DNA of 64,000 nucleotides, taken from contig JBHIAE010000013.1 of NCBI GenBank assembly GCA_046758445.1, positions 5,252 through 69,251 on the forward strand, read 5' to 3'. Under the pieces are notes generated by a model, which saw only the letters and a list, made by a program, of their open reading frames with translations, ran no database searches and was not told where the DNA came from. Numbering within the stretch: the stretch's first letter is position 1; each line of letters starts with the position of its first letter. Below are positions 4,935 to 50,679 of this stretch, piece after piece. This stretch comes from Candidatus Thorarchaeota archaeon. GTDB lineage: Archaea > Asgardarchaeota > Thorarchaeia > Thorarchaeales > Thorarchaeaceae. The position numbers and the translations under genes were made by a program.

Positions 4935-7900
4935 CCCGCTCTTGCGTCCACTAGTCAGTCGTGGTCCAAGGAAGTGTTGATACAACTGGAGGTATGAAGA
5001 CTCAGTTGACACAATCGCAAGGTCAGAGTCAGACTCCTCTGACCCTCCGATAAGAATCTCGCTGTCATCTTTGACCGCCAGTGTGGTTGGCGACGCTGTC
5101 TGCCAGATCCTCCAGCCCTTCAGGGCTTGGAGTTCAGGGCTGGCCTCCTCCATCTCAGGGATTATGAGTATCCTTCGCCTTGGAGCCTTTGACTTTGCTA
5201 GCTTCTTGAGATTAAGGCAGTCAAGACTTAGAACTGAAATGACCACTGATTCCTCTGCTCTGGCGACCATGTCCTGCATGTGAGCACAGATCTCACCACT
5301 TCCGGTGACATACCAAGTCCTATCACTAGGAACTGCCAACAACTCTTCTCCGGAGGCCTTGACAGCTTCTAGCGTTTCCATAGTTCGATTGGTGATTTCA
5401 GAAACCGCTTGAACAGCCTCATCAATCTGAGATTCGATAGTGCTCAGGGTCTTCTTCTGCTCTGTCCCCCACTGCCGCATTGTCTTGTCCACGTGTTCTG
5501 CAAGACTATTCAGCGCATCATTCCTTCCCTGTCGAAGAACTGACATTCCCTCTTTTGTATCTGTAGCGGCCTTGGAAGCACTAGCACCTATCTCGGAGTT
5601 CTTGGATGTGAGATCGCTTCTAACCTTCTCCACGAGTCGTGCTGTTTCGCCGCCAAGATGGGTCTTGAGATCTAGACCGATTGACTCGAGCTTTCTGGCC
5701 GAAAACTGGTTTGAAACGAGGACTCCTTGTTTGGCTTCAGAGAGAGCATTCTCAACGTGTTTAGTTGACAGGGTTGAGACTCGCTCGAGAAGTCCATGTG
5801 CTTCTTCCGCGACTGGTTGAGCCAACTCCGTGAACTTTGAGAACGAGGAGTCAATCGCCGCCGTGGCTCCATGACAGTATTCATCGACCTTCTCTGTGGC
5901 TTCGGCAACAGACGCGTCTATAATTCCCTTGAATGTCTCTGGCATGTCAGAGAATCCCTCTCCTACGTTTGTTAGTAGGCTCGTTGATTTCTCTCCGAAT
6001 TCGGTTGACAGTTTCCGAAGACTAGCCTCCGATTTCTTGAGTAGTGCTCGACTAAGGCCTTCGTAATCCTTGAGCCTCTTCTCGCCTCGTTCTCCAATCT
6101 TCGAGGCCACCTTGTCCGCGGCCTTCGTAATGCCACTTGCCAACGTGGCCATCTCTGCGTTCAATTTGGTCCCAAGCTGTTCCAACGAGGATGTAAGATT
6201 TCCTGCCGCTGTTTCTAGTCCTTCGGACGCTCCGATGAATGCCAACGCAACCTCGTTTCTTCGCTCCTCTATGGCCGCCACAGCCTGTTCTCTTGTGGTT
6301 CTTACTGCTTCCGACCTAGACGCGTCCTTCTTGGCAAGAGAAGTTTGAAACTTCTCAACTCTCTCATTGGAAGATTTCAAGAGCTTAGACGCAAGACCAT
6401 CCATCTTCTTGCTTGTACTTGCCAAAAGCTTCTCGCGTGATTCATCTTGTTCAGTGAAGTATGTGTCGATGACGGACTTTATCTTCGCAGTATTCTTCGA
6501 CATTGAGCTTTCAGCAGTGTCTGTGACACTTACCACTCTCTCCGCTATGCTGTCGCGTGCACTATTGACAGTAGATTTGAACTCCTTCGAAACTTGCACG
6601 ATGTTGTCCGCGAACTGGCGAATCGTCCCAGTTTCCATTTCCTTGAGAGCATCTTGTGTGCTTCTCACAGCATCTTCTATGCCACTGAGAGCATCGGCCA
6701 TAGACTTGGAGATCTCAGTCCGCTTCTCCACAGTAAGATCCTCGAGCGCCTTCCTCATGCCATCAACAGCTCCGACGAGCTCATCTACCTTGGCATTCAG
6801 CTCCACCGAGAACTCCTGTTGCAGTTTCTGAGAATCCTCTTGGAGAGATCCAATCTCTGACTTTAGCGACCCCTTGAACTCCGTGTGAACCGAGGCAATT
6901 AGATCGCGAGCTTCGGTGGTCTGACTAGAAAGGAATCCGTTGAAAGTGGCTTCAATGCTCTTCGTCAGATTGATGAACTGTCTGGTTATGTCCTCAACTT
7001 GAACATGGAACTCATTGCGTATGCCTTCCGAGTGTTCGTCAATTCGAGCTACCTGCTCTTCAATTGCCTGGTCGATCTCCTTCTGAACTCTGTTAGCATG
7101 TGAAGTCAAAGCACTCACACCTGACTCGAGTCGTTTGTCAACACGTTTGTTGAAACTGCCATACAGTGCCTTAGCCTCAGTTATCTGAGACTTTGTAGTT
7201 TCGGCGTAACCAGCTATGACTTCAGAAAGTCGTTCGCCGACATCAGCTTCGAACTCGTGCGTGATCTTCTTCACAGAAGTGAGAGCAGACTCCTGCTTCG
7301 TTGCAGAGGTTTTCATCACGGTGTTGTATGCCGACTTGAGTCTGCTGTTTATCGCCTCAGCGAGCGTGTCAATCTCTGAGGCTTCTGTGTCCAAAATCGC
7401 ACTTACTTCCTCCACTACCTGAGTGAGATTCTGGTTCATGGACGTGAGCGCACGCTTTGACCAGTTGTCGATATCGGTAATCGCCTGAAGATTGGCCTTG
7501 TCAAGCTTCTCCTCATGGGCATTTAGTTGCTTCTCCAGAAGCGCTAGAGTGGATTTTCGACAAGTTCCAAGGTTTGCCTCGAACTCGGTATGCACATTTG
7601 TCGCCATATCCTTCAAGGACTCATACTCATCGTCGAACACTTTCTGAGTCTTATCGATGAGACCGGAGGCTGCTGTCTTTACGTTTTCCAAGTACTTTGT
7701 TTCTGTAGACTGGATCTGGTCAAGTTGGGACTTCAGCGACTGAGTTGCCACGTCCATGAACGCCGCAACTTCAGCCTTCCATTCTTCAACATCTGCTCTC
7801 ACTGTTTCAGAGAGTTGAATTGCCTCCTCAATGCGAGTCTTGGCGAATTCTGCCTCTTCGCGAACTTGGTCTCGATTCCTTGATATCATCTCGTTCAGCG

Positions 7901-8840
7901 ACCCTTCGCCTGCCAGATAGCTAGAACTCAATTGTGCGTCAAGCTTAGAGAGCATCGCCTCAAGGTCCTCGCTGGCCGTGGTCAACGCCGCTATTGCACT
8001 GTCAGATGCACCTGTTGACTCTTCAGAGATCCTGCTACTCATCTGTTCCCCAGAAACCTGTACAGCTCTTCTTGATTCCTGTAGAGTGGAAGACAATGAG
8101 GCACTGAGGGATGCGACTAGAGCTGCAATCTTACTCCTTAGTCCATCCACGGCAGCTGCTGACGATTTGTGCTCAGCAGTCAGAACTCTCTTGAAACTCC
8201 TCGTAGTCTTATTGAGTTCGTGATCGAGAGCCTTCTGGCTCTTGTCAAGTTCTTGTTGGAGCGCGGTGAGTCGAGTGCCAAGGCCTTCATCAAGAGTCAC
8301 ATCTAGACCTGTCAACGCTTCTTCGATACTTTGTGCGAACTCGCTGAGGACCTGGGTCGCAAGAGTGGCGACGGTATCAATCTGGGATTGGACGGTGTCA
8401 ATCGTGTTGGACTCGTAGCTCTGTAAAGCAACTCTTCCATCATCGATGGTATTCTTATGGGACTCTAGAACCACCTCGATGTTTTGGTCCACCCTCTCGA
8501 ACTGGGCCTCGAACAACTTCCGAGTTTCCTCAGAGAATGAGCCCAGATCTCCTTTGATAGAAGAGAGCACATCATCTAATGCAAGAATCGTAGGAGCCAA
8601 TCGATAGACTTCTACCACGCCATCTACCTTTCGAATCAAGCCCTTCTTTTCCAGACGCTTGAGCGCACTTCCCACCTTCCTCCTTGACTCACCAGTGATC
8701 TCGACGATTCCCCCAGATGTAAGATTACCCCCAAGGAATATCGAGAGAACCACTTTGGCCTCAATATCCGTTATTCCAAGATTCCTCTTTAGTACTGGAA
8801 TACTCTCAACTACTGTACTTCCACTCAAATCCAATCCCAC
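4929..8840 (-). CDS. Giant (1303 aa) coiled-coil protein with N-terminal winged-helix (TrmB-like) DNA-binding domain and small C-terminal globular domain
   Basis: N-term ...DIEAKVVLSIFLGGNLTSGGIVEITGESRRKVGSALKRLEKKGLI (wHTH); ~1000 aa of heptad-like E/K/Q/L/A/S-rich sequence; no Walker A/B so not SMC/Rad50. Confidence 0.6.
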   Translation of the reverse strand: MGLDLSGSTVVESIPVLKRNLGITDIEAKVVLSIFLGGNLTSGGIVEITGESRRKVGSALKRLEKKGLIRKVDGVVEVYRLAPTILALDDVLSSIKGDLGSFSEETRKLFEAQFERVDQNIEVVLESHKNTIDDGRVALQSYESNTIDTVQSQIDTVATLATQVLSEFAQSIEEALTGLDVTLDEGLGTRLTALQQELDKSQKALDHELNKTTRSFKRVLTAEHKSSAAAVDGLRSKIAALVASLSASLSSTLQESRRAVQVSGEQMSSRISEESTGASDSAIAALTTASEDLEAMLSKLDAQLSSSYLAGEGSLNEMISRNRDQVREEAEFAKTRIEEAIQLSETVRADVEEWKAEVAAFMDVATQSLKSQLDQIQSTETKYLENVKTAASGLIDKTQKVFDDEYESLKDMATNVHTEFEANLGTCRKSTLALLEKQLNAHEEKLDKANLQAITDIDNWSKRALTSMNQNLTQVVEEVSAILDTEASEIDTLAEAINSRLKSAYNTVMKTSATKQESALTSVKKITHEFEADVGERLSEVIAGYAETTKSQITEAKALYGSFNKRVDKRLESGVSALTSHANRVQKEIDQAIEEQVARIDEHSEGIRNEFHVQVEDITRQFINLTKSIEATFNGFLSSQTTEARDLIASVHTEFKGSLKSEIGSLQEDSQKLQQEFSVELNAKVDELVGAVDGMRKALEDLTVEKRTEISKSMADALSGIEDAVRSTQDALKEMETGTIRQFADNIVQVSKEFKSTVNSARDSIAERVVSVTDTAESSMSKNTAKIKSVIDTYFTEQDESREKLLASTSKKMDGLASKLLKSSNERVEKFQTSLAKKDASRSEAVRTTREQAVAAIEERRNEVALAFIGASEGLETAAGNLTSSLEQLGTKLNAEMATLASGITKAADKVASKIGERGEKRLKDYEGLSRALLKKSEASLRKLSTEFGEKSTSLLTNVGEGFSDMPETFKGIIDASVAEATEKVDEYCHGATAAIDSSFSKFTELAQPVAEEAHGLLERVSTLSTKHVENALSEAKQGVLVSNQFSARKLESIGLDLKTHLGGETARLVEKVRSDLTSKNSEIGASASKAATDTKEGMSVLRQGRNDALNSLAEHVDKTMRQWGTEQKKTLSTIESQIDEAVQAVSEITNRTMETLEAVKASGEELLAVPSDRTWYVTGSGEICAHMQDMVARAEESVVISVLSLDCLNLKKLAKSKAPRRRILIIPEMEEASPELQALKGWRIWQTASPTTLAVKDDSEILIGGSEESDSDLAIVSTESSYLQLYQHFLGPRLTSGRKSGS

Positions 8841-11032: not shown

Positions 11033-11884
11033 CTATATCTTACTGGCACGGATGAAATCTAATCCGCACTCTTCGAGGATTGGGAAGATACGGGCCTTGT
11101 TCTCCGCATTAGTTCCCTTCCAGTCTATGATAGCTCGAGAAACCTTCTCCTTGCTCCGTGATATCATATGCTGGATCACATCAACATCAATCTCGTTCAG
11201 GGCGTACTTGGGAGCGATGTGACCGATTCTTACATCTTTCTCTAGAACTAGCTTGTTGAACTTGCTAGCATAGTGCGTGCCACCAAAACCAATAGAGGAT
11301 TCTGACTCAATTGGCGCTCGAATGCATTCCATGACTGCTGCCGCAACAGACCTTGCTCCCTCTTCATGTTGCCAGTAGGCTTCGCCACTGCCTAGTTCGA
11401 CAAAGAGTAGAGGTGTATTCATGGTTGTAGGGCCGTGATGGGTCACTTCAAGCGTGATATCGAACTCCTCCAGCCGGCGCCTGGCTCTCTCCTTCTGTAG
11501 GCTCCGTAAGGCCACGGACATAAGACTTGCTATGGACACAGACAGGCTCCTTGGGGCACCTCCATAGCTAGCATCATCTCCGAAGTTGCCTGTACTATGA
11601 ACGAGCAGGGCAGGCCTGCCCGACTGTGCTCTGTGGCGAGAGCAGAAGATGAACACCTCTGCTTCGAAATGTTGCTCTAGATGATCTGCGAATATCATGT
11701 CGCGCTCTGTTGTGATCAGCAAAGCTGAACTTCCAAGTGAGTAGACTGGATTTCCCTCGAATGTTTCACCGGTTTCTTCGAAGCCATGTTCATCGCGTAG
11801 TAAGTTGCTTATGGTTTGACTCGCTATGTCTTGAGTCGAGGAAACAAGCACCCTCATTTGGATCATCCGTTTCTCAATCGACAA
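11033..11884 (-). CDS. dtdA: D-aminoacyl-tRNA deacylase, archaeal type (DtdA/DTD2)
   Basis: 283 aa; strong match by recollection to Pyrococcus DtdA (..FEGNPVY..; SRHRAQSGRPALLVHSTGNFG; EVTHHGPT; DWKGT). Confidence 0.8.
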   Translation of the reverse strand: MSIEKRMIQMRVLVSSTQDIASQTISNLLRDEHGFEETGETFEGNPVYSLGSSALLITTERDMIFADHLEQHFEAEVFIFCSRHRAQSGRPALLVHSTGNFGDDASYGGAPRSLSVSIASLMSVALRSLQKERARRRLEEFDITLEVTHHGPTTMNTPLLFVELGSGEAYWQHEEGARSVAAAVMECIRAPIESESSIGFGGTHYASKFNKLVLEKDVRIGHIAPKYALNEIDVDVIQHMISRSKEKVSRAIIDWKGTNAENKARIFPILEECGLDFIRASKI

Positions 11885-13118
11885 TACACTTCTCTAGCAG
11901 GGGCTCCAATGATATCTCAAGCTCGAGTGTCACCTTCTCCTCAAAGGACTCCAGAATCTCTGACTCAATTCGGTCCTTATGGTCCCTAACTCGAGCTAGC
12001 TCACGTTCAATATCGTCCCTGATTCGAAGCATATCGCTGCGATGATAGTCAAGATTCTTCTGGGCCTCTTCAAGCTCGCCCTGGAGCCGATCGCTCTCCG
12101 CGTATACATCAGAACCTGCGTATTTCCGGCGTTTCTCCTCCAGCTCTTTAGCTTTCTGCTGCAGCTCCTGGAGAGAACCACTGCTGATAGCGTTCACCTC
12201 TTCAATTGCACGTCTTCCTAGTCGGTCTTTTAGAGAGAGCTTGCCTGTTTCAATTGCTTCCCTCAGTCCCCCAAGTCCTTCAAGTAGTCCCGGATGTCCG
12301 TCGGGCTCCTCGACGATTGCCGTATAGGGGTCCTCGAAGTAATCAAGGAGAGCTCTTTGGCCAGCGGCACCCACTCGCACACCGGTGTCACGTTGGAGGA
12401 ACTTCTTCACCTGCTTCTTCAGAGGATTCATCTTCATCCTTAGAACACCAGCCAAACGATCCGCCTCTTCGTCAAGCGTGAGTAGCCCTGCCACGTCGGA
12501 CGTTTCTGCGAATGTATTGTAGGCGGTCTTCGCCGAATCAAAATCAACTTTGGCCGTGTCAATCTTCATCCTCGTCTGGCGAATCTGGTCTTCAAATAGC
12601 TCTTCGCTGTGACCCAGGTCTTGCAAGGTCTGAATTCTGGTTCCAATCCTCTCCAGGTCTTTCAGCCAGTTGAACTCAAAAAGGAGCTTTTGAATGCGGT
12701 TCATCTCATTCATGAGCTCTTTCATGGCAGAATCAATCTGCTTGATCGTCGTCTTGTGCCTCTTGTCCATCCGCCTGATCCAGCGGGCGCCAGCACCCCA
12801 AAGCTCCTGAATGAAAGCCCTGATCTCCTCCTGAAGATCCTCCATACTCTGGTGGGTCACCTCTTTGTCGACATAGAAGTCGGCAGTGATGTCCTCGACC
12901 TTCATGGCGAATCTGGTGGCAATGCCCATGGAATCTGGTTCATCCTCGCCAGTCTCCCTAAGGTTTCTTGAGAGATCCTTTATGTCTTTGAGAGTCCTCT
13001 CTACAACCTTGTAGCTCCTCTCAGCCTTCTTCTTGAATTCCTTAGATCGATTTGAGAGGCGTTTTCGATACCACTTTTGAAGCTGGTCAACAGTTAGAGT
13101 CGTCATCTGGGGTGCCAC
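11874..13118 (-). CDS. Coiled-coil protein, function unknown
   Basis: 414 aa, mostly predicted alpha-helical/coiled-coil; stop overlaps dtdA start by 11 nt (operonic). Confidence 0.4.
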   Translation of the reverse strand: MAPQMTTLTVDQLQKWYRKRLSNRSKEFKKKAERSYKVVERTLKDIKDLSRNLRETGEDEPDSMGIATRFAMKVEDITADFYVDKEVTHQSMEDLQEEIRAFIQELWGAGARWIRRMDKRHKTTIKQIDSAMKELMNEMNRIQKLLFEFNWLKDLERIGTRIQTLQDLGHSEELFEDQIRQTRMKIDTAKVDFDSAKTAYNTFAETSDVAGLLTLDEEADRLAGVLRMKMNPLKKQVKKFLQRDTGVRVGAAGQRALLDYFEDPYTAIVEEPDGHPGLLEGLGGLREAIETGKLSLKDRLGRRAIEEVNAISSGSLQELQQKAKELEEKRRKYAGSDVYAESDRLQGELEEAQKNLDYHRSDMLRIRDDIERELARVRDHKDRIESEILESFEEKVTLELEISLEPLLEKCIVD

Positions 13119-14412: not shown

Positions 14413-15084
14413 ATGACAGACAATCGCCTCTCGATTCTCATTGGAATACTAAGGAACTCAAATGAGTTAGACAAGATTCTCGCTAGTGACGAAGTCACGA
14501 CAGATCTTCTAGAACAGGCGGGAGCCACACAAGTAGATGAGGAATCCTGGACACTTGACAGCGCAGCAAGAGTATCTCTGGCCATTCAAGCCAACCTGTT
14601 GGGTGCTGAGCTAGAGGAGATTGTGAACCTACTCTCGTGGAAAGACTTTGAGGGGCTAGTGGCAAGAATCCTGACAGAAAACGACTACCGTTGTCTTGAG
14701 AACTTCAGGAAACGTGGAACGAAAGAAGCAAGAGGCATGGAGATTGATGTCATTGGAGTCAAGGGCACGAGCGTTATTTCAGTTGATGCCAAGATGTGGG
14801 GAGTCAGGTCAGGCAAGTCAACTGCCTTGAAGTCTGCAGCAGAGAAGCAGGAAGAGAGAACAGTTCGCCTATGTGATCAGATGCACATGCTGGCGGAGAA
14901 ACTGGGTGGTATCCCTAGCGGAGTATACTCACTCACGCCAGTCTTGGTTACTTGGATGGTTGAAGAGGTTGTCTTCCATGATGGAGTTCCCGTTGTCCCC
15001 GTCTTCAAGCTTAACACATTCTTGCAGGATATGCCAATCTACCAGGACATGATCGCGTCTTCCGACTGTGTCTTTCATAGCTAG
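14413..15084 (+). CDS. PD-(D/E)xK nuclease-fold protein (Mrr/Hjc-like restriction-endonuclease-like domain)
   Basis: ...GMEIDVIGVKGTSVISVDAKMW... matches D...(E/D)xK arrangement of the fold; N-terminal helical region. Confidence 0.4.
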   Translation: MTDNRLSILIGILRNSNELDKILASDEVTTDLLEQAGATQVDEESWTLDSAARVSLAIQANLLGAELEEIVNLLSWKDFEGLVARILTENDYRCLENFRKRGTKEARGMEIDVIGVKGTSVISVDAKMWGVRSGKSTALKSAAEKQEERTVRLCDQMHMLAEKLGGIPSGVYSLTPVLVTWMVEEVVFHDGVPVVPVFKLNTFLQDMPIYQDMIASSDCVFHS

Positions 15085-15109
15085 TGTTTGACCTTCCTGC
15101 GCAAGCAAA

Positions 15110-15922
15110 TCATGATCTGCCTTCAACAGTCCAAAGAGATTCATGAATGACGTCTGAATATGTAACTCTCACGCGCTGAGTCGCCAGAACCCGGAAGTTC
15201 CTGTAGAGCCGATCAAGCTCGGTTAGACTGTATGGTGCTGTCCAATTGATACCTAGCCGCTCCCTAAAGACCGAACTTGGCACACCAATGTCACATACAT
15301 ATAGGTCTCCTAGACTTTCCGGCAATGTTTCAAGAAGACCAGACTTCACGAAGGCAATCGTCAATGTGGCGAGGGGGTTGACTCTTCCGACATTCTCGCC
15401 TGTGGTTACGTCCAATCCCGAGGGAGCATCCAAGGATAGTACTCTCTCTGACTCCTTAAGAGCGGCAAATACATCATTCGCCAGCGGGTCCTCACGTCTA
15501 GTAAATCCATACCCAATGAAGGCATCTAAAACCAGAGTCTTGTTGTCTGAGGGGGCAGTCAGGGGACCTTCAAGAATCTCGGAACCAACCGATTTGAGCC
15601 TCTCCAATTGAGCTCGGGGTATAGAGCGGAGCGACCTGATGCCTTTGGGAACCACGACTTTGACGTTGTAGCCCCAACCGAAGAGTCGTCGTGCAGCAAC
15701 TAGTCCACCACCTCCGTTATTTCCCGATCCCACAACAATCAGAAACTGAGTGGATGAATCCCCTGACAACTCTACTGCTAGCCGTGCAAAGCTGGAACCA
15801 GCATTCTCCATCATCAGCTCAACAGGAATGCTCAGCTCCTCCATCATAATGCGGTCGACTTCAATCATCTGGTCCCGTGATATGCCTGGCAGACCCATAC
15901 CAAATGGATAGACGCCAATCAC
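15110..15922 (-). CDS. nnrE: NAD(P)H-hydrate epimerase (YjeF N-terminal domain)
   Basis: ...FLIVVGSGNNGGGGLVAARRL.GWGYNVKVVVP... canonical YjeF-N glycine-rich motif. Confidence 0.7.
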   Translation of the reverse strand: MIGVYPFGMGLPGISRDQMIEVDRIMMEELSIPVELMMENAGSSFARLAVELSGDSSTQFLIVVGSGNNGGGGLVAARRLFGWGYNVKVVVPKGIRSLRSIPRAQLERLKSVGSEILEGPLTAPSDNKTLVLDAFIGYGFTRREDPLANDVFAALKESERVLSLDAPSGLDVTTGENVGRVNPLATLTIAFVKSGLLETLPESLGDLYVCDIGVPSSVFRERLGINWTAPYSLTELDRLYRNFRVLATQRVRVTYSDVIHESLWTVEGRS

Positions 15923-16038
15923 TTAGCCCTTGCCAATCATTCTAGCTGCTAAGGAGGTCATCAGAGCCTCCTGAGGTTCATCTTTTTATCTGGTCAATAC
16001 ACTTCATCAGACAGATTCCGAAGCGGGAGATATGATCA

Positions 16039-16932
16039 ATGGCTCTGTTCGGTGTAGTCTATCACGAAAACGTAAACAATTGGGCTACTGCCAGTCTCAT
16101 TGAGGCCATAGAGGCAAAGGGACACACCGCCAAGCCCTTCCGCCTAGCAGATGTGGCAGCCGAACTTCCTCACAGATTCACGCATCTAGATGAGGAAGAC
16201 GTTTCAGGAATGGACGGGGTCATGGTCCGCACAATCGGTTTCGGAAATAGCGACCAGATAACCTTTCGAATCAGTCTTTTGGAGCATTTCGAGGATGCCG
16301 GTATTTACGTGATGAACCCAGCCTATTCATTCAGAAGAGCCAAGGACAAATACGCGACCTTGACTGCACTGCATAAGGCGGGAATCAGAGTCCCACGGAC
16401 GTACATTGGCGAGAACCTCGAGGCTGCAATCAATTTCGCAGATGAGGTCGGAGATGTCATAATCAAGCCTCTCATTGGTGCCCGTGGCCTTGGCGCAATT
16501 AGAGCCCAACATCCCGAACTCAACTACCGGGCCATGAAATTCATTCACCAGTTGGGTCAAGTCTTATACGTTCAAGAAGTGATACCTAAGCCAGATCGTG
16601 ATATTAGAGCATTCGTTATCGGCGACCAGTTGGTGGGGGCAATGTACAGATACCTCCCCGAGGAAGACAAGGATGAGTGGCGGACCAACGTTTATGCCGG
16701 GGGTCGTGCTGAGCTGGCGAGCCTTGATGATGAATATTCGGAGTGTGCAATCAAGACTGCCGCCACCCTCAATCTTGACTATACTGGAGTAGATATCATT
16801 GAGTCACCTGAGGGCCCCTATGTGATTGAGGCTAACGCAGCTCCTTCTTGGAGCGCCCTCTCACGTGTTACAGAGAAGAACATTGCAGGAATGATAATCG
16901 ACAGGCTGATCCACCAATCCGGTGTGAAATGA
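16039..16932 (+). CDS. RimK-family ATP-grasp alpha-L-glutamate ligase
   Basis: 297 aa; ATP-grasp layout (KP.IGARGLG..; ...VDIIES..GPYVIEANAAPSW) typical of RimK/LysX/MptN/CofF; exact substrate not assignable. Confidence 0.75.
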   Translation: MALFGVVYHENVNNWATASLIEAIEAKGHTAKPFRLADVAAELPHRFTHLDEEDVSGMDGVMVRTIGFGNSDQITFRISLLEHFEDAGIYVMNPAYSFRRAKDKYATLTALHKAGIRVPRTYIGENLEAAINFADEVGDVIIKPLIGARGLGAIRAQHPELNYRAMKFIHQLGQVLYVQEVIPKPDRDIRAFVIGDQLVGAMYRYLPEEDKDEWRTNVYAGGRAELASLDDEYSECAIKTAATLNLDYTGVDIIESPEGPYVIEANAAPSWSALSRVTEKNIAGMIIDRLIHQSGVK

Positions 16933-25763: not shown

Positions 25764-26654
25764 ATGGTGATTCGTTTGACCCTGCGAAAGGGAAAGAAAC
25801 CTCTCAACATCAGTCATGATAGGACATGTGACTGTGATCCCAACCATATCAACTGCTTGACAGCAAAAGAATGGCTACAGCACCAGATTGCTGTTTGGGA
25901 GTTCTACTATGAGAAGCGAGATATACGTGATAAGAAGGTACACCCTGCAGTGTTCCCAATAGCGCTACCAACAAAATGCATTAGACTCTTCTCACATCGA
26001 GGGGAGCTTATCCTAGATCCTTTCGTCGGATCAGGAACAACGCTTGTGGCTGCTCAAGACCTCGGGCGAAACGCAGTTGGCTTTGATCTCAAGGAAGAAT
26101 ACGTACACATATCCAATGAAAGGATTGAAGCAGATGGAACTCAGAAGACTCTACAGATGGCAATCTGCGATGATGCACACAGTATTCCAGAGTACCTGGA
26201 GAACCAGACTGTTGCTCTAGTGGTAACGTCTCCTCCGTACGCCAACCTCCTGAATCGCAAACGTCGTAACAAGAGTAGACGCGGGGACCTTCGCAATGAT
26301 GAACACTATCTGACCGTTCAGCAGTATTCTGATGATCCGAGGGACCTCGGTACCATGAATGTCCATGCTTACGCTGAAACGCTAGGTCGGATCTTCAAGG
26401 GGATTCTTCCTCTGCTGAAACGAAGGGGCCACTGTGTCATCAATATCAGTGATTATTGGTGGGAGAACAAGCGAGTACCCGCCCACCTACATGTGATTGA
26501 GGCGATGCAAGAAGTCGGGTACGAACTCCGAAACACCATAGTCTGGGACAGACGCAACTTGGTGAACAAGGCAGGGATATTTGGTTGGCCTTCAAACTAC
26601 ATTACACTGACTACGACCTTTGAGTACCTCCTTCATTTCTGGAAACCGAAATAG
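25764..26654 (+). CDS. N6-adenine/N4-cytosine DNA methyltransferase (PF01555-like)
   Basis: Motif I ILDPFVGSGTT (res ~85) precedes motif IV VVTSPPY (res ~155); orphan (no adjacent nuclease). Confidence 0.75.
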   Translation: MVIRLTLRKGKKPLNISHDRTCDCDPNHINCLTAKEWLQHQIAVWEFYYEKRDIRDKKVHPAVFPIALPTKCIRLFSHRGELILDPFVGSGTTLVAAQDLGRNAVGFDLKEEYVHISNERIEADGTQKTLQMAICDDAHSIPEYLENQTVALVVTSPPYANLLNRKRRNKSRRGDLRNDEHYLTVQQYSDDPRDLGTMNVHAYAETLGRIFKGILPLLKRRGHCVINISDYWWENKRVPAHLHVIEAMQEVGYELRNTIVWDRRNLVNKAGIFGWPSNYITLTTTFEYLLHFWKPK

Positions 26655-39589: not shown

Positions 39590-40768
39590 GTGGCCGAAGT
39601 CAGGGAGGTGTACCTCGACTATCAGAGCTCGAAGCCTGTCGACCCGCGCGTCATAGAGGGAATGATGCCATACTTCCATGAGCGCTTCGGCAATGCTTCA
39701 GCACTTCACCACGTGGGGGACGTGGCCACTGAGGCACTCGAAGAGAGCCGCCGTGTCATAGCCGAGTTCATAAACGCAGATGCAGACGAGATTGTCTTCA
39801 CCTCTGGGGCAACTGAGGCGAACAATCTAGCCCTTATTGGATACGCCATGCGACAGAAGCGCAAGGGCAATCACATCATAATCTCAGAGATCGAGCACAT
39901 CTCTATTCGTAACATTGCCAAGTATCTTGAGCGAGAAGGGTTTGAAGTCACGCGAGTTCCGGTGGACAAGTATGGACGTGTCGACCCTCGGAAGTTGGAA
40001 CGGCGAATAAGAAACGAAACTATCCTGGTTTCAGTAGGCTATGCCAACAATGAGATTGGCACGATTCAGCCCGTCGCAGAGACAGGGAAGTTGGCGGAAG
40101 AGCATGGGATTGGTTTTCATACCGATGCTGTGGCCGCAGAGGGTCTCATTCCCATTGATGTCAAGCGTGACAAGATTCACCTGATGTCTCTATCGTCAAA
40201 CGACTTCTATGGACCCAGAGGAGTTGGAGCTCTCTACATGAAGAAGCGTTATAGAGTAAATCCAATCCTGATTGGTGGAGGTCAGGAGAGGGGCCTAAGG
40301 TCTGGGACAGAAGATATAGCAGGCATCGTTGGCATGAAACTGGCTACAGAGATAATGAAGAAAGAGATGCCTAAGGAAGTAAAGCGACTCCAAGGGTATC
40401 GCGACAGACTAATCAAGACAATCCTGGAGGAGATTCCTGATAGCCACCTCAATGGTCATCCCACCGAGAGACTGGCAAGCAACGCGCACTTCAGATTCGA
40501 TGGCGTCGAGGGCGAAGCGCTCATGCTGTCCTTCAAAGACAAAGGAATCTCAGTTTCTACGGGCTCTGCATGCACATCCAAGACTCTAGAACCGTCACAC
40601 ACTCTGATTGCTACTGGGCTCATTCACGAGGAGGCCCATGGGTCACTTCAGTTGACACCTGGAAGATTCAATATAGATGAGGACATTGACCGCGCCCTCG
40701 AGGTAGTACCAGAAGTGGTGTCACGGATTCGAAAACTGTCTCCAATCTACAAACCAAAGGCAAGTTGA
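39590..40768 (+). CDS. iscS: Cysteine desulfurase (IscS/NifS family), GTG start
   Basis: 392 aa; class-V aminotransferase motifs, PLP-lysine region (SLSSNDFYGPRGVGALY), active-site loop STGSACTS. Confidence 0.85.
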   Translation: MAEVREVYLDYQSSKPVDPRVIEGMMPYFHERFGNASALHHVGDVATEALEESRRVIAEFINADADEIVFTSGATEANNLALIGYAMRQKRKGNHIIISEIEHISIRNIAKYLEREGFEVTRVPVDKYGRVDPRKLERRIRNETILVSVGYANNEIGTIQPVAETGKLAEEHGIGFHTDAVAAEGLIPIDVKRDKIHLMSLSSNDFYGPRGVGALYMKKRYRVNPILIGGGQERGLRSGTEDIAGIVGMKLATEIMKKEMPKEVKRLQGYRDRLIKTILEEIPDSHLNGHPTERLASNAHFRFDGVEGEALMLSFKDKGISVSTGSACTSKTLEPSHTLIATGLIHEEAHGSLQLTPGRFNIDEDIDRALEVVPEVVSRIRKLSPIYKPKAS

Positions 40769-45175: not shown

Positions 45176-45634
45176 ATGCGGACTGTGAGAGGAGCTGTAG
45201 ACTCTGACAGAGAATTGCTTGTGAAACTGTTTGTGTCTGAGGTCGAAGACGATGCCAAACTGGCTGAACAGTTCGCTGACGACCTGTTACGATTCCGAAC
45301 CATTCTCTGTCTTGAGAACCAAGAGGTAATTGGCACTGTTAGCTGGGACATCAGGGGAAACCTTGATGATGGAGTTGTAGAGCTGATTGGACTCGGAGTG
45401 AATCCCAAGTTTCGAAGACAGGGAATAGCCAGGAAACTTGTGGAAACACTGATTCAAGATGTGTCAGAGTACTACTCCAAGAGTAAACACCACCTTCGAG
45501 TGATCTATCTCTTCATGGAGAAGCAGAATGATCTCGGGCGCTCCTTCTACAATACCATGGGTTTCAAAGAGGTTGCAGAGGTTCCTTTATTATACCCGCA
45601 TGATGACGCTAGTATTTGGACACTGCACCTATGA
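45176..45634 (+). CDS. GNAT N-acetyltransferase
   Basis: ...LIGLGVNPKFRRQGIARKLV... acetyl-CoA-binding motif. Confidence 0.6.
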   Translation: MRTVRGAVDSDRELLVKLFVSEVEDDAKLAEQFADDLLRFRTILCLENQEVIGTVSWDIRGNLDDGVVELIGLGVNPKFRRQGIARKLVETLIQDVSEYYSKSKHHLRVIYLFMEKQNDLGRSFYNTMGFKEVAEVPLLYPHDDASIWTLHL

Positions 45635-45645
45635 GGTAGCTGGCC

Positions 45646-47757
45646 ATGGTCTTCATAGAGAGAAGCTTTCCAAGCAAGGAGATCGATGAGATAGCTTGGA
45701 GTGAGAGCAACTCTAGGAAACCGATATACCACATGCACAAGTGGTTCGCCAGAAGGGTAGGTTGTACATTCAGGGCAATCATTCTTGCTAGTTTTCTGGA
45801 AAGAAACCCAATGGATCGATACTACGAGCGCGTTCAGCTCACCAATGCTGAAGGGTCCCCACCAGTCATCCTTGATCCCTTCATGGGTGGCGGCACCACA
45901 ATCGTCGAAGGGCATCGTCTAGGATGCAAGATGATAGGCGTTGATGTCAATCCTGTGGCATGGTTCATCACGAAGCGAGAGCTTGAACATGTAGACCCAG
46001 AGAGTGCCACGAGGGAGTTCAGGAGAATCGAAGAGACCGTTGGTACCAGAATCCTCTCATTCTACAAGACGAGATGCAACAAAGACCACGATGGCGATGC
46101 GATGTACATCTTCTGGGTCAGAAAGATCAACTGCCAAGACTGCGGCGAAGAGGTCCCTCTCTTCAAGTCGTTTTTGTTAGCGAACCTTGGGTCGGATGGG
46201 AGAGTATACTATTGTCCTGACTGCAGAAAGATAGTCAAATCGAAAAAGGACCCCCTTTGTGAATGTGGTAGGGACCTTTCGGGGAGATATTCAACAAACA
46301 AGGAATACACATGTCCTTCTTGCGGCATTCAGGGGGACCTGACTTCTGCATGGTTATCAGATGGCAAACCTCCCGCTGAGGAGATGTTTGCAATAGAGTA
46401 CGACTGTAAGGTCTGTGGTAGAGAGTTCAAGACACCCGATGATAGTGATCTATCGCACTTTGAAGAGGCCAGGACTGAGTTTATTCGTCAGAAGACTCGG
46501 CTGATGGGCAGAATAATCCCTGAGAAGTGTGTGCCTTGGAACAAGATGGCGACAATGAGACCTCGGTGTCTCGTGTATGACAGATATCACCAGTTCTTCA
46601 ACGAGCGCCAGCTGTTGTCGTTGGCATTGATAATGGAGGAGATTCTAGAGATTGATGACATCTCGCTTAGGGAGTTCTTTGCACTCACATTCTCCGATGC
46701 ACTGAATGCCAACAACATGTTCTGCATATACAACACTACCGCACGAAAACTTGAACCGCTCTTTGGAGGTCACTACTTCTCTCCACCAACAACGCCAGTC
46801 GAGAACAATGTCTGGGGTGCCAGAGTAGGAAGAGGCACTTTTCGGAGGTACTTCCTGAAGGGTCTGAGGGCCCTCAAGTACCAAAGTAGCCCCCATGAAA
46901 TAAGGTTCAACTCGAACATTGGGATTGGGGGAGGAGTCGTCAGGCATAGAGAACGTGTGGTAATCCCAGGTGACCGGATAGATGCAGAGTTTGCAGACTC
47001 CTTCAGCGACCTCGAAGAGGGAAAGGACACGCTTCTCACTTGCAAGTCATCAGAAGACCTTGGTATGCTCCCTGACAACTCTGTTGATGCAGTAGTCACC
47101 GACCCCCCATACTATGACAACATCATGTATTCGGAGCTCTCTGAATTCTTCTACGTATGGCTGCAGAAGATAGTCCCCGATGCATTTCGGAACTTGTCGT
47201 CTGGGTCATCAAGTTCAGACGACAGAGAGATTCTAGTAAACTCCAAGATTGGCAAAGGAGATAGCTTCTTCGTGGACTCCATGACTCGAGTCTACATGGA
47301 ACTCAACAGAGTGCTCAAGGATGATGGCCTACTCACGTTCGTCTTCCAGCACAAGCGGCCGAAGGCTTGGTCAGCACTCCTCAAGACTCTGATTAGGTCT
47401 GAGTTCCAAGTCACGGCCATGTATCCAACTCATGGCGAAACCCCCAGTGGTGTCCGAGCTCATGGCATGAGCTACAACACCATTCTTGTCTGCAGAAAAG
47501 GGTTGGAAAGAACACAGAGCCCGATCTCCATGGATGAATTGAGAGATAGAATCCGTACCAGCGTGTTTCAAGTTCTCGTTGACCATCCGGAGATCAACGA
47601 AACCGAAGCACTAGTGCTCGCCATGGGGAAGGCACTCCAGATTTGCACTCAGGATGCTGGATTGATAGACATCGCCAGAGAAGATCAATCAGAAAAAGGA
47701 TCGACGGACATGCTGGAGCACCTTGTGAGAGAGAGTATCAGGGATCACTACTCGTAA
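45646..47757 (+). CDS. DUF1156/COG1743 adenine-specific DNA methyltransferase with zinc-ribbon insert
   Basis: N-terminal SFPSKEIDEIAWSESNSRKPIYHMHKWFARR (DUF1156 hallmark), motif I LDPFMGGGTT, multi-Cys zinc ribbon (CQDCG...CPDC...CECG...CPSCG), motif IV VVTDPPYYDN. Confidence 0.8.
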   Translation: MVFIERSFPSKEIDEIAWSESNSRKPIYHMHKWFARRVGCTFRAIILASFLERNPMDRYYERVQLTNAEGSPPVILDPFMGGGTTIVEGHRLGCKMIGVDVNPVAWFITKRELEHVDPESATREFRRIEETVGTRILSFYKTRCNKDHDGDAMYIFWVRKINCQDCGEEVPLFKSFLLANLGSDGRVYYCPDCRKIVKSKKDPLCECGRDLSGRYSTNKEYTCPSCGIQGDLTSAWLSDGKPPAEEMFAIEYDCKVCGREFKTPDDSDLSHFEEARTEFIRQKTRLMGRIIPEKCVPWNKMATMRPRCLVYDRYHQFFNERQLLSLALIMEEILEIDDISLREFFALTFSDALNANNMFCIYNTTARKLEPLFGGHYFSPPTTPVENNVWGARVGRGTFRRYFLKGLRALKYQSSPHEIRFNSNIGIGGGVVRHRERVVIPGDRIDAEFADSFSDLEEGKDTLLTCKSSEDLGMLPDNSVDAVVTDPPYYDNIMYSELSEFFYVWLQKIVPDAFRNLSSGSSSSDDREILVNSKIGKGDSFFVDSMTRVYMELNRVLKDDGLLTFVFQHKRPKAWSALLKTLIRSEFQVTAMYPTHGETPSGVRAHGMSYNTILVCRKGLERTQSPISMDELRDRIRTSVFQVLVDHPEINETEALVLAMGKALQICTQDAGLIDIAREDQSEKGSTDMLEHLVRESIRDHYS

Positions 47758-47781
47758 GTGGTACACGCTGTACGGGTTTGG

Positions 47782-49068
47782 TCATGAAGACAATGGAACT
47801 TGAAGCAGGTACTTGAAGCCCAAGTCTTGACTATTCATGACGTCTTGCTTGAGCGTCTTCACGACACGCCTTATTCGCTCCGAGCCAATCTCTGAAACCG
47901 TCTTGAAGCCTGCCTCTACGGCCCTTGAGTCTGCTGGTACTTCTTCGGGACTCTGTACCATGATGAACCTTCTATTGCCGCCGTCTTCATGATTCAGCTC
48001 GAGAACTGCATGTGCTGTAGTACAGGATCCCGCAAAGAAGTCCAAGACGATGTCATTCTCACTGGCCTCAGTGCTTAGACTTAACATCCTCTTAATCAGT
48101 CGTACCGGTTTCGGGGTGTCGAATACTCCAACGTCACCAAAGATCTCTCGAATGCTACGACGAGCCTCCTGATTGTCCCCAACCTCTGTGCGTTTCCAGA
48201 TAGTTCGAGGAGTGACTCCTGGCTTGACGTCAGAGAGAAAACGCTTCAGTCGCGGCACGTTGCCCCCCTGATCGCCGAACCAGACCCGATTCTCGCTAAC
48301 CAGCGCGAGGAATGAACTCTTCGGCATACCCCAACATCTACCTCTCGGCGGCTTCACAATACGACCTGAAGGGGTGGTAATCTCATAGTCGTAGTCCTTG
48401 TTGTACGTCTTCACAGTCAGGTCGCTTGAAGTCCACGGACCACGTGCGTCCTCATCTCGATTCTTATAGCGGGAGTCAACCTCATCTGTACGCGGCAACA
48501 GGTTAGGACGCCATCTTTCCTTGGTGCGGGCGTAGAGCAAGATGTAGTCATGGTTGTCCGACAACCATCTGGCGTCATTCTGTGGTGAGAACTTCTTCTC
48601 CCAGACAATAGTGGCAACGAAGTTCTCCTCACCAAAGACCTCATTCATCATCATGCGAAGGTGATGAACCTCATTGTCATCAATCGATGCGAAGATGACG
48701 CCGTCCTCCCTGAGCAGCTTGCGTGCGAGTAGCAATCTTGGAAATATCATTGAAAACCAACCAGAATGAGGATTCTCGTTTGAAGATGAATTGAGTCCGG
48801 TCTGGTGTCTATCGCTGTATACGTAGGCCCCGCCAGAATTGTATGGGGGGTCAATGTAGATCATTCTGACCTTGCCCTCGTACTGCGATTGAAGCAGTTT
48901 AAGGACTTCTAGATTGTCACCCTCGACAAACATATTCTTGGTGTTGTCAAATTCGACTGACTGCTCCAGATTGGGTTCTAGTCTGAACAAGGACGGTGAG
49001 AACGCGCGCTCTCGTGCCTTGTCCTTTCTAGGCCACAAAAGAGTGCAAGTGTGATCTCGCTCGGTCAT
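47782..49068 (-). CDS. Beta-class amino-DNA methyltransferase (Type III Mod-like/Type II N6A or N4C)
   Basis: Motif IV IYIDPPYNSG near N-terminus, motif I VLDFFAGSCTTAHA near C-terminus; 428 aa; convergent with the DUF1156 MTase, 24-nt gap. Confidence 0.8.
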   Translation of the reverse strand: MTERDHTCTLLWPRKDKARERAFSPSLFRLEPNLEQSVEFDNTKNMFVEGDNLEVLKLLQSQYEGKVRMIYIDPPYNSGGAYVYSDRHQTGLNSSSNENPHSGWFSMIFPRLLLARKLLREDGVIFASIDDNEVHHLRMMMNEVFGEENFVATIVWEKKFSPQNDARWLSDNHDYILLYARTKERWRPNLLPRTDEVDSRYKNRDEDARGPWTSSDLTVKTYNKDYDYEITTPSGRIVKPPRGRCWGMPKSSFLALVSENRVWFGDQGGNVPRLKRFLSDVKPGVTPRTIWKRTEVGDNQEARRSIREIFGDVGVFDTPKPVRLIKRMLSLSTEASENDIVLDFFAGSCTTAHAVLELNHEDGGNRRFIMVQSPEEVPADSRAVEAGFKTVSEIGSERIRRVVKTLKQDVMNSQDLGFKYLLQVPLSS

Positions 49069-49110
49069 TCTGCAAAGTAAAAGGATTCAGTTGCTCGTAT
49101 TTCAGTATTG

Positions 49111-50175
49111 TCAGCGGCCAGCGGTTCTGTTGCGGATTATCTGGATGGATCTCTCCAAAGGGATGCTCCAAGTACACGTCTTCTGATCGAGCAGCTCAAG
49201 AGGATGTGACGGTTTGACCAAAGGAGAACTGTGCAAGGTCTGGAAGAAGTAGGATGCGACGTGGGGACGGATGATGTCAAAGCCCCTCAGGAATCCCTTG
49301 TGGTCCCTTGATGACAGACTGAAGCGTATGTAGTATCGCGTTCTCGACTCCATCATGACATAGAGTTGAAACGGGAGTTCATAGAAACTCTTGAGAACGC
49401 CATCTACAGGTTCTTCAAGCTCCAGAAACATGACAATCATTCCATGGTCACTATACGGAGAGAATGCAGACTTGTAGCCCTTTATGATGCCGGTCCTCTC
49501 CAAACGGTGGAGCCTCTTATTGACTTGGGTCTCTGAGAGTCCTAATTGCTGGGAGAGTTGCTTCTGAGTCATCTCTGACGCCTTCGTAACATGTTTGAGC
49601 AGAAGCACGTCCTTAGAGTCGAAATCTACAACTCTGGGACTGAGTTCCATTCTTGGTGGAGACCCCTCTCTAGTTCGTAGATTCCTCTCAATCTGCTTGT
49701 ACCACTCTGTCCAATCCCATGACCAGCTTGAGTCAGTGTTGAAGTACCGGTAATCCGCTCGTTTGTACTCATAGTCCACAATGTCAAAGATATGGTAGTC
49801 AGCTACGAGGTCTTCTTCTTGCATGGCCCTCAATAGTGTCCTCGTTGTGCTTGGAGAAGAGAGAGGATAAGCAGTCTGAGCGATGTAGCCGTTGTACTTC
49901 CCGTAAGTTTCGCTATACCAGTAGAATGGTGTGAGTGCTTCAATCACATATCGAAGATGGCGCGTCCCTCTCCTACTCGTTTCTAATGCAACGAGGTTGT
50001 TGCCGAGACCTAACTTACGCTCATGTGCGATGGCATGAGGAGGGTAGAGGATACCGGTCCTCCTCAATCTTGAGCGTCGATACCTGACAGTCCTAGAGGG
50101 AATCCCAAGAGTTTCTCCTAGCTGCTTCGCTGAGGCTTTGGCTCCAATCTCATCAAGAGCACCAATGATGTCCAA
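49111..50175 (-). CDS. Tandem Lrp/AsnC-like transcriptional regulator (two HTH + ligand-domain modules in one polypeptide)
   Basis: Two HTH-like stretches (LGETLGIPSRTVRYRRSRLRRTGIL; LSQQLGLSETQVNKRLHRLERTGII); 354 aa. Confidence 0.5.
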   Translation of the reverse strand: MDIIGALDEIGAKASAKQLGETLGIPSRTVRYRRSRLRRTGILYPPHAIAHERKLGLGNNLVALETSRRGTRHLRYVIEALTPFYWYSETYGKYNGYIAQTAYPLSSPSTTRTLLRAMQEEDLVADYHIFDIVDYEYKRADYRYFNTDSSWSWDWTEWYKQIERNLRTREGSPPRMELSPRVVDFDSKDVLLLKHVTKASEMTQKQLSQQLGLSETQVNKRLHRLERTGIIKGYKSAFSPYSDHGMIVMFLELEEPVDGVLKSFYELPFQLYVMMESRTRYYIRFSLSSRDHKGFLRGFDIIRPHVASYFFQTLHSSPLVKPSHPLELLDQKTCTWSIPLERSIQIIRNRTAGR

Positions 50176-50394
50176 GTCCTTGCGATCGATGGAAAGGTCA
50201 CTTGTCAGGTGATCACTTCCCTACTATGAAGCCAGAGAATTCATTTAATGATAGGTTTCCGAGTACGAAGCCTTACGCTGTTGGCAACTCTTATAAAACG
50301 AGAATTGCCTATGGTACGTTTGATGGTGCAAAGTTGGCAATCGGACCACCATGAAGTGGCCGAAACTTGCATCAGTTCCTAAGGAGGATAAGAT

Positions 50395-50679
50395 GTGCGA
50401 TTACCATTCGGACTCACCAAGAGTTCAATTGTAGTTCTTGACAAACTGGCCAATGAAGGCCCGATGTACCCACAGGAGATTGCTGACAAAGTGGGTCTCG
50501 CCCCACGAACTGTCACTCTTGCCTTGAGGAACCTTCTGAAACATAATCTATGTCGCAAGGTTGCCAACTTCCAAGACATGCGTAAACCGCTCTATCACGC
50601 TGACATCGAGAGAGTCCGCAAGCTTGAGAAAGAGCTTGACATCTGGAGAACACTCGCGAGCGTGCAAGTACGAGCATAG
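50395..50679 (+). CDS. Small winged-helix transcription regulator (MarR/PadR-like)
   Basis: ...PMYPQEIADKVGLAPRTVTLALRNLLKHNL... HTH. Confidence 0.45.
   Translation: MRLPFGLTKSSIVVLDKLANEGPMYPQEIADKVGLAPRTVTLALRNLLKHNLCRKVANFQDMRKPLYHADIERVRKLEKELDIWRTLASVQVRA

Follow-up and report, generated by a model that had tools for sequence, protein, structure and literature searches.

Persistent orphan methyltransferases are well known from both bacteria and archaea, and the 29 persistent archaeal groups of a REBASE survey include 20 Type II orphans, two BREX-like groups and none derived from a Type III system; the only Asgard genome in that survey carries two Type III Mod genes and no Res genes (PMC10609329, PMC6471742). 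Type III Mod enzymes methylate one strand only of an asymmetric site, and in the EcoP15I Mod the N-terminal domain (NTD, aa 14-60) is intertwined within the Mod dimer and the C-terminal domain (CTD, aa 539-644) of one protomer extensively contacts Res (PMC4490356). The methyltransferases of BREX-related (BR) systems carry a C-terminal triad of helix-turn-helix (HTH)-like domains, and some of the Type-3 BR enzymes have two four-Cys fingers within the recognition insert (PMC12839542). Here we compare with these systems a locus from a Candidatus Thorarchaeota archaeon, lying in a 64,000-nt stretch of contig JBHIAE010000013.1 (hereafter the window), in which two putative amino-methyltransferase genes, M1 and M2, converge tail to tail. 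We consider it likely that M1 and M2 are persistent orphan DNA amino-methyltransferases that were domesticated from two unrelated defence systems. The pair is laid out as follows.

45646-47757, + strand: M1 open reading frame (ORF), 703 aa, DUF1156-family (BREX-related type) amino-methyltransferase with a truncated C-terminus
47782-49068, - strand: M2 ORF, 428 aa, minimal Type III Mod-like beta-class amino-methyltransferase, comprising core and target-recognition domain (TRD) without NTD or CTD
47758-47781: 24-nt gap between the convergent stop codons of M1 and M2

The original prediction, made from the letters of the window alone, had given these ORF coordinates, strands and lengths and the 24-nt tail-to-tail gap, all of which matched exactly on re-check. 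Its assignment of M1 to the DUF1156 zinc-ribbon enzymes agrees with Pfam and PADLOC matches and with ten Cys residues at aa 163-257, and its description of M2 as a beta-class, Mod-like enzyme agrees with matches to PADLOC MTase_III (2.9e-138) and to the EcoP15I Mod (2.2e-54). It had left two alternatives, namely that both genes encode orphan methyltransferases or that an unrecognised neighbour supplies a restriction or effector function. The former is well supported here by the lack of local partners, by domain losses, by vertical inheritance and by selection.

Ancestry and domain content of M1 and M2

M2 matches Pfam N6_N4_Mtase (3.6e-37) and PADLOC MTase_III at the value given above, and among solved Mods it matches those of H. 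pylori (6k0w, 3e-68) and EcoP15I (4zcf), with an alignment that spans residues 90-513 of 618 in the former and 57-501 of 644 in the latter. The order of its motifs is that of the beta class, with DPPY followed by the TRD and then by FxGxG, as in the Type III Mods of EcoP15I and H. pylori.

48841-48852, - strand: M2 motif IV, DPPY, aa 73-76, invariant in alignments A1 and A5
48133-48498, - strand: M2 target-recognition-like middle region, aa 191-312, where conservation within M2 is highest
48016-48042, - strand: M2 motif I, DFFAGSCTT, aa 343-351, placed by sequence alignments

Outside the Thorarchaeota clade, the nearest relatives of M2 are proteins of ~600-620 aa at 57-60% identity that adjoin a gene with ResIII and RE_endonuc domains. 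A scan with an M2 profile gave 80 listed metagenomic relatives at 40-57% identity, all of them bacterial Mods, and a Res gene is present beside 41 of the 43 listed relatives that have at least 3.5 kb of downstream sequence; the family of M2 is thus a bona fide Type III Mod family. Conversely, none of the 13 M2 loci (the window and 12 orthologous loci) has a res gene. These relationships point to descent of M2 from the Mod subunit of a restriction-modification (R-M) system of Type III.

Aligned with the Res-linked Mods, Thorarchaeota M2 is missing ~50 N-terminal and ~130 C-terminal residues, and across most of the lineage it also lacks a loop of ~25 residues after DPPY. The alignment thereby indicates that M2 shed exactly the Res-docking CTD and the accessory dimerisation NTD of a Mod and kept its core and TRD. 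In a deep-branching lineage (L118 and L119) the loop after DPPY is still present and the CTD is already gone, which suggests that M2 was reduced stepwise. The TRD-like region, for its part, has 78% identity and 54% invariant columns among the Thorarchaeota orthologues and is 59% identical to that of Res-linked Mods. Such conservation is the reverse of what is seen in diversifying R-M enzymes, and is the pattern reported for persistent orphan methyltransferases.

M1 belongs to a different family. Its match to Pfam N6_N4_Mtase (3.9e-11) is split in two pieces, its match to Pfam DUF1156 (24.2 bits) lies just above the gathering cut-off of 24, and its PADLOC matches to DUF1156_MTase (1.8e-30), HmaB (6e-27) and PglXI all fall within 1e-26 to 1e-30. 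It scores 139 bits against the NCBIfam model NF042963, 'anti-phage-associated DUF1156', for which the equivalog cut-off is 1000. Motif I, which binds S-adenosylmethionine (SAM), stands far upstream of the catalytic motif IV, with a cysteine-rich recognition insert in between.

45874-45900, + strand: M1 motif I (SAM binding), DPFMGGGTT, aa 77-85, invariant in alignments A2, A6 and A7
46132-46416, + strand: M1 zinc-ribbon cluster in the target-recognition insert, Cys 163, 166, 190, 193, 205, 207, 223, 226, 254 and 257
47101-47112, + strand: M1 motif IV (catalytic), DPPY, aa 486-489, invariant in alignments A2, A6 and A7
47506-47754, + strand: M1 C-terminal tail, aa 621-703, with four modelled helices at aa 629-702

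All ten zinc-ribbon Cys are invariant both in a nine-sequence alignment (A2) and among 21 Thorarchaeota orthologues (A6); in a 70-sequence alignment (A7), eight are invariant and C257 nearly so. The tail, by comparison, is the sole poorly conserved part of M1, at 30% identity and 2% invariant columns among the Thorarchaeota orthologues. An AlphaFold model of M1 (pLDDT 89.9, pTM 0.90) places a single four-helix element of ~75 aa at aa 629-702, and in alignment ~160 C-terminal residues are absent relative to sister forms of 834-870 aa. On this model, M1 lacks two of the three C-terminal HTH-like domains of BR methyltransferases. A structure search found no solved structure resembling M1 beyond the generic Rossmann core, and its matches, which include RNA methyltransferases, are weak (E > 1e-3, template-modelling score ~0.13).

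In a simple distance (neighbour-joining) tree of 76 family members, the Thorarchaeota M1 sequences form a monophyletic clade (40/40 bootstraps), and its sister group, with the same support, consists exclusively of the 834-870-aa proteins. Flanks could be read for two of the sister proteins, those of Syntrophoarchaeum and Theionarchaea, and both lie in operons of a DUF499 ATPase, a standalone PglZ-like protein and the DUF1156 methyltransferase, an arrangement that corresponds to the 'Type-3 BREX-related' systems (PMC12839542). M1 resembles the methyltransferases of these DUF499-centred systems (HmaB, BR-MTase, PglXI-like) in its DUF1156 N-terminal helical domain, its split core and its zinc-finger insert, and is 49-57% identical to members in DUF499-PglZ operons; it differs from them in its length (703 aa against ~860-960 aa) and in having no DUF499, PglZ or helicase neighbour. 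The tree and these identities argue that M1 descended from the methyltransferase of a DUF499-centred BREX-related system, and that it kept the helical DUF1156 head, the Rossmann core in its split form and the zinc-ribbon recognition insert.

A second known context of the family is a Type II R-M system that pairs a short DUF1156 methyltransferase with an EcoO109I-like endonuclease. In loci L020-L041 (Chloroflexota, Bacillota and others), a gene of ~240 aa lies ~10 nt upstream of the methyltransferase gene in 15 of 39 loci with short DUF1156-family enzymes. One such upstream gene was scanned and matched Pfam RE_EcoO109I at 70 bits; no PADLOC model matches that endonuclease. By these gene contents, L020-L041 represent a Type II-like R-M context for DUF1156-family methyltransferases. 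M1 shares with this type a methyltransferase length of ~700-770 aa and a small same-strand gene ~10 nt upstream. However, the gene upstream of M1 encodes a GNAT acetyltransferase, and M1 is only 33-41% identical to the short enzymes and branches with the long BR forms; the tree and the identities rule out M1 as a Type II methyltransferase of the EcoO109I-linked short clade.

Further relatives of M1 are found without a recognised partner. In L053, L054, L069, L074 and L079 (labelled Hodarchaeota or Heimdallarchaeota, with L074 labelled Thorarchaeota), two DUF1156-family methyltransferases of ~695-725 aa occur in tandem without DUF499; in three of these five loci they flank genes that by eye resemble those of a phosphate transporter and a PhoU/DUF47-type protein, and are preceded by a gamma-class methyltransferase of ~775 aa. 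Orphan-like DUF1156 enzymes may be common in Asgard archaea. Another locus (L018, from an uncultured archaeon) has a long M1 relative of 851 aa with DUF499 and PglZ undetected in 7.7 kb upstream and 9.5 kb downstream, and its enzyme may have a divergent partner or else be an orphan of the long form.

Partner search and persistence across Thorarchaeota

The original prediction had seen no Res, Type II restriction endonuclease, BREX or DISARM component near the pair. Indeed, Pfam and PADLOC scans of the window (±10 kb flanks and 43 further ORFs, so that all ORFs of at least 200 aa and the small flanking ORFs were covered) found no Res, restriction endonuclease, BREX, DISARM or DUF499 component, and the PADLOC check that it had proposed returned no defence partner for the pair across the 64 kb, within a batch that covered the 25 strongest of 86 families, with matches of E ~1e-14 or stronger. 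The matches that were seen, namely an IscS-like protein (a DndA/SspA cross-match), coiled-coil/TPR proteins, a third methyltransferase and a borderline Mrr_cat, are not linked to the pair. No res gene was found in the window or in 12 orthologous loci, and DUF499 and PglZ, both of which adjoin the long M1 forms, were found neither in the window nor in any Thorarchaeota locus by tblastn and iterated searches with home-made hidden Markov models (HMMs), methods that may miss very divergent partners.

With gaps of just 11, 24 and 42 nt, the block of GNAT, M1, M2 and Lrp-like genes could not accommodate a hidden gene.

45176-45634, + strand: GNAT acetyltransferase, 152 aa, Pfam Acetyltransf_1 2.2e-13, ending 11 nt 5' of M1
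49111-50175, - strand: tandem Lrp/AsnC-like protein, 354 aa, on the same strand as M2 and directly upstream of it
50395-50679, + strand: MarR-family gene, 94 aa, Pfam MarR 1.3e-10, divergent from the Lrp-like gene

The notion of an unrecognised effector next door is not supported: the gaps are too small, the neighbours are syntenic metabolic genes and M2 is without the Res-contacting domain. A hidden nuclease or effector among the neighbours was rejected on the Pfam and PADLOC scans, the latter within the 25 strongest families. The Pfam matches listed above bear out the earlier calls of GNAT and MarR-like flanking genes, and the name 'glutaredoxin' given to another flanking gene is only approximately right, as the 112-aa CxxC protein in question is thioredoxin-like and matches the thioredoxin family weakly.

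Orthologous loci were collected from contigs encoding homologues and by an M1-profile scan of one genome per GTDB species (79 loci), followed by tblastn of the neighbours; the related sequences are all metagenome-assembled genomes (MAGs) or metagenome fragments, and some of their taxonomic labels are loose. The source names on the nearest database homologues assign the window to Thorarchaeota, a group of Asgard archaea. In each of the 12 other loci in which M1 is at least 54% identical and the contig extends past its 3' end, M2 is convergent with M1, and across the orthologous loci the tail-to-tail gap is ~0 to 27 nt. Wherever the contig reaches far enough, the GNAT gene is upstream of M1 and the Lrp-like gene directly upstream of M2; the GNAT gene ends 3-14 nt from M1 (11 nt in the window and in L001, 3 and 14 nt in two deeper loci). 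By contrast, none of the ~65 M1 homologues at 50% identity or less has M2, GNAT or Lrp-like genes nearby, and GNAT is absent from two orthologous neighbourhoods that have no methyltransferases (L086 and L087). GNAT, M1 and M2 therefore behave as a clade-specific three-gene block.

The flanking housekeeping genes are also syntenic over the orthologous loci, which places the block at the same chromosomal site, and the loci fall into one and the same order of identity for M1, M2, GNAT, IscS, NifU and others, as joint vertical descent predicts. Against the two closest orthologues, beyond which synonymous divergence (dS) is saturated, the ratio of nonsynonymous to synonymous divergence (dN/dS) is 0.15 and 0.12 for M1 and 0.13 and 0.14 for M2, comparable to the neighbours, and 0.07 for GNAT. 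Both reading frames are intact in all loci, and the genes are kept down to 54-62% identity. The pair has persisted under purifying selection at one housekeeping site over a Thorarchaeota lineage. A viral or proviral origin was considered and rejected, since scans of viral contigs gave no relative of M2 and only relatives of M1 at 41% identity or below.

Possible roles of the pair

Given these architectures, M1 and M2 are most likely resident epigenetic markers rather than parts of a hidden restriction system. Their DPPY motifs predict that both make N6-methyladenine. Under the domestication that we favour, an ancestor of the Thorarchaeota lineage would have gained a Mod of Type III origin and a methyltransferase of the BREX-related kind, whether alone or in the company of their partners; effectors, if present, would have been lost and docking and accessory domains shed; and purifying selection would have kept both enzymes, their recognition modules frozen and their DPPY and SAM motifs intact. 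Each would then methylate adenine in its own fixed motif on the host chromosome, serving as a resident epigenetic mark, presumably with a housekeeping role directed at the host, and the genes would be expressed from two converging transcription units, GNAT-M1 and Lrp-like-M2. Like the established persistent orphans (the haloarchaeal CTAG N4-methylcytosine methyltransferase, Dam and CcrM), M1 and M2 lack a cognate nuclease, are inherited vertically, evolve as ordinary genes and have a conserved specificity region; unlike them, they are two enzymes of different defence ancestry, fixed as an abutting convergent pair with a GNAT gene.

Several points weigh against this account. The activity, target base and motif of both enzymes are predicted from their sequences, and the loss of the NTD from M2 might impair the dimerisation that beta-class enzymes use. 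What was inspected amounts to 64 kb here and MAG fragments elsewhere, and Res, DUF499, PglZ or a helicase could sit in another part of the genome. Furthermore, the flanks are syntenic too, so the pairing of M1 with M2 may reflect general synteny and not functional coupling, and the constant juxtaposition of GNAT and M1 finds no explanation in domestication of the two methyltransferases.

One alternative is a distant partner: the pair could still be in active defence, with the Res for M2 and a DUF499 ATPase, PglZ and a helicase for M1 encoded elsewhere and acting in trans. Only 64 kb of the genome was examined, the recognition insert and catalytic core of M1 are intact and could mark self DNA for a distant BR module, and another MAG labelled Thorarchaeota (L074) has additional DUF1156 methyltransferases elsewhere. 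We nonetheless judge it distinctly unlikely, given that M2 has neither an NTD nor the CTD that contacts Res so extensively in EcoP15I, that Res adjoins 41 of the 43 listed relatives and DUF499 and PglZ adjoin the long M1 forms, that defence systems are typically patchy whereas the block of GNAT, M1 and M2 is fixed and syntenic over the lineage, and that the TRD of M2 is conserved in the manner reported for persistent orphans, not for patchy, horizontally exchanged R-M genes. The loss of the CTD makes a partner in trans unlikely for M2 in particular; it is less excluded for M1. A 'vaccination' role is also unlikely, though not as strongly so. In that role the enzymes would not be regulatory marks: by methylating the host genome beforehand they would neutralise incoming viruses, or mobile systems of the Type III or BREX-related kind, that share their specificity, or would limit post-segregational killing; both enzymes derive from defence, and the 59% identity of the M2 TRD-like region to widely circulating Res-linked Mods makes a shared specificity plausible. 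Set against this, the viral-contig scans gave no close viral relatives, nothing supports such a role directly, and a single specificity fixed long-term over a lineage is more typical of housekeeping orphans (PMC10609329, PMC6471742).

The abutment of the two genes, kept in all loci, would itself be explained if M1 and M2 worked as a couple on a single asymmetric site, one enzyme per strand, in the way of the methyltransferase pairs found in Type IIS systems, and Type III Mods methylate a single strand of such a site (PMC4490356). However, joint insertion and general synteny account equally well for the linkage, and M1 and M2 come from unrelated systems with unrelated recognition modules, with nothing pointing to matching specificities, which leaves such a couple very unlikely. 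We find it highly improbable that one or both enzymes were re-purposed for an RNA or protein substrate, perhaps together with a co-transcribed GNAT: at 50-60% identity, both still have the whole DNA-methyltransferase architecture seen in their defence relatives, down to the TRD or zinc-ribbon insert. The GNAT-M1 spacing of 11 nt in the window and L001 and of 3-14 nt in the deeper loci would fit such a role, as would the resemblance of the GNAT to N-terminal protein acetyltransferases (weak structural matches) and the generic Rossmann methyltransferases, RNA enzymes included, that M1 matches structurally beyond its own family, but the matches to RNA methyltransferases are weak, at the scores given above. 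Lastly, the domain losses in both enzymes and the degenerate C-terminal tail of M1 might suggest decaying remnants without function; decay is essentially refuted, because intact frames in all loci, dN/dS of 0.12-0.15, invariant catalytic motifs and retention down to 54-62% identity contradict it.

A more ambitious extension of the orphan interpretation, which we regard as doubtful, is that GNAT, M1 and M2 together are an epigenetic module with two marks, passed on vertically and defining the lineage, in which the two methyltransferases were co-opted to write two fixed adenine marks on the chromosome and the convergent layout and the co-transcribed N-acetyltransferase are functionally meaningful. 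The layout would then serve, for example, coupled expression, strand-complementary marking or a link to the acetylation of chromatin proteins.

When an orphan methyltransferase is retained throughout a lineage, it is usually a sign that the enzyme serves the host, for instance in timing replication, in repair or in controlling genes. Asgard archaea are the closest prokaryotic relatives of eukaryotes, and to our knowledge their DNA methylation is almost uncharted; this locus offers two concrete enzymes as testable entry points into it. Orphan methyltransferases derived from R-M systems are already known, and in that respect the finding is incremental and not surprising. What is new is a Mod-derived orphan cut down to core and TRD, a BR-derived DUF1156 orphan with a truncated C-terminus, and the fixation of both over a lineage as an abutting convergent pair with a GNAT gene. 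The locus thus provides a clean natural example of domestication, in which catalytic and recognition modules were kept and frozen and other domains were lost, those being the partner-docking domains in M2 and C-terminal HTH-like domains in M1. Importantly, the known settings of DUF1156-type enzymes now number at least three, being BREX-related systems, Type II-like pairing with an EcoO109I-like nuclease, and the orphan state, a diversity that matters for automated defence annotation, which would otherwise flag genes of the M1 and M2 type as anti-phage.

Neighbouring genes and other observations

The Lrp-like protein beside M2 had been described beforehand as a tandem-fused Lrp/AsnC regulator, and its AlphaFold model (pLDDT 90.1) does contain two Lrp/AsnC-like units in tandem, each with a winged helix-turn-helix (wHTH) and a RAM-like part. 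Foldseek places NirDL (4ch7, E 6e-11) at the top for the full length, at 15% identity, and Lrp/AsnC regulators match each of the halves, so that at the level of the model the protein resembles both NirDL/AhbAB and the Lrp/AsnC (feast/famine regulatory protein) family in its tandem wHTH and RAM-like units. A role as siroheme decarboxylase was rejected despite the likeness to the NirDL fold, on account of the 15% identity and an NCBIfam AhbA score far below the cut-off. Contrary to the first proposal, the protein is not atypical for these organisms: in a database of 5.8 billion proteins its family has 48 members, and every source-named member is from Asgard archaea. A small, divergently transcribed MarR gene is the consistent companion of family members. 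Both genes occur without methyltransferases in L086, L087 and L088, the first two of which also lack GNAT; L086 has A_deaminase, MarR and thioredoxin-like genes in common with the window, and L087 has TusA, IscS and NifU. As the same neighbourhood exists in genomes without GNAT, M1 and M2, the Lrp-like/MarR pair predates the methyltransferases at the site.

The earlier suggestion that the double-Lrp protein is a candidate controller of the locus runs against these contexts, since related Asgard genomes devoid of methyltransferases have it at this very position with its MarR partner; a role as dedicated controller was therefore rejected, and nothing points to the Lrp-like protein as an effector. 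It also differs from the C-protein controllers of R-M systems, which are small Xre-type HTH proteins travelling with R-M genes, whereas the neighbour here is a 354-aa tandem Lrp-like protein. It is plausible that M2 is co-transcribed behind the Lrp-like gene, from the promoter of the latter; 42 nt separate the two genes in the window, and in L001 they share a 14-nt overlap. The homologous Lrp-like proteins start ~10 residues earlier, with a consensus LDxKDL that matches the upstream in-frame peptide IDRKDL (50176-50223, - strand), and no ATG, GTG or TTG lies between the in-frame stop at 50221-50223 and the TTG at 50175; the protein here is either slightly shortened or has a non-standard start.

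The solved structures closest to the GNAT are those of NAA60 and RimI, though each matches only weakly. AT-rich, TATA-like stretches are visible by eye upstream of GNAT and in the 219-bp stretch (50176-50394) between the Lrp-like and MarR genes, and a scan with bacterial-type patterns, uninformative for an archaeon, found no terminator-like hairpin in the 24-nt gap. The block has no GC anomaly, the GC content being flat over the region. Its surroundings belong to sulfur-relay, iron-sulfur and amino-acid metabolism (TusA, DsrE, an IscS-like desulfurase, NifU, a Cys/Met pyridoxal-phosphate (PLP) enzyme, an HhH-GPD glycosylase and flavoproteins), with TusA-DsrE-IscS-NifU on one side of the block and MarR, the thioredoxin-like gene, the Cys/Met PLP enzyme and HhH-GPD on the other.

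The IscS-like cysteine desulfurase (39590-40768, + strand) matches PADLOC DndA and SspA at ~1e-139. Its setting is the TusA-DsrE-IscS-NifU sulfur relay, and the 25 strongest PADLOC families in the window include no further Dnd or Ssp family; automated defence annotation could miscall the enzyme. A 223-aa protein at 14413-15084 (+ strand), 31 kb from the pair, has a borderline match to the PD-(D/E)xK family Mrr_cat (20.4 bits against a cut-off of 21) and no PADLOC match, and would, if the match is real, be a nuclease of the methylation-dependent type. Elsewhere in the window lie a coiled-coil protein with a weak VPS28 match (11874-13118, - strand; E 0.002) and a 1303-aa protein with a TrmB domain and apolipoprotein-like repeats (4929-8840, - strand); PADLOC 'ZorA' matches (E 8e-17) to two window ORFs may be coiled-coil artefacts.

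Additional methyltransferases are encoded in the window and in a related locus. The third amino-methyltransferase of the window (25764-26654, + strand, 296 aa) has motif I LDPFVGSGTT, motif IV SPPY and a PADLOC MTase_II match of 9e-128, and is flanked by genes for a corrinoid-binding protein and a histone-deacetylase-family protein. The SPPY motif suggests N4-cytosine methylation, and without an endonuclease nearby the enzyme is another apparent orphan. In the deep-branching L119, two more N6_N4-type methyltransferases of 386 and 277 aa are found ~3 kb past MarR (14723-16674), which brings four methyltransferases within ~8 kb with no endonuclease recognised among them; the 277-aa protein is 28% identical to the third methyltransferase of the window.

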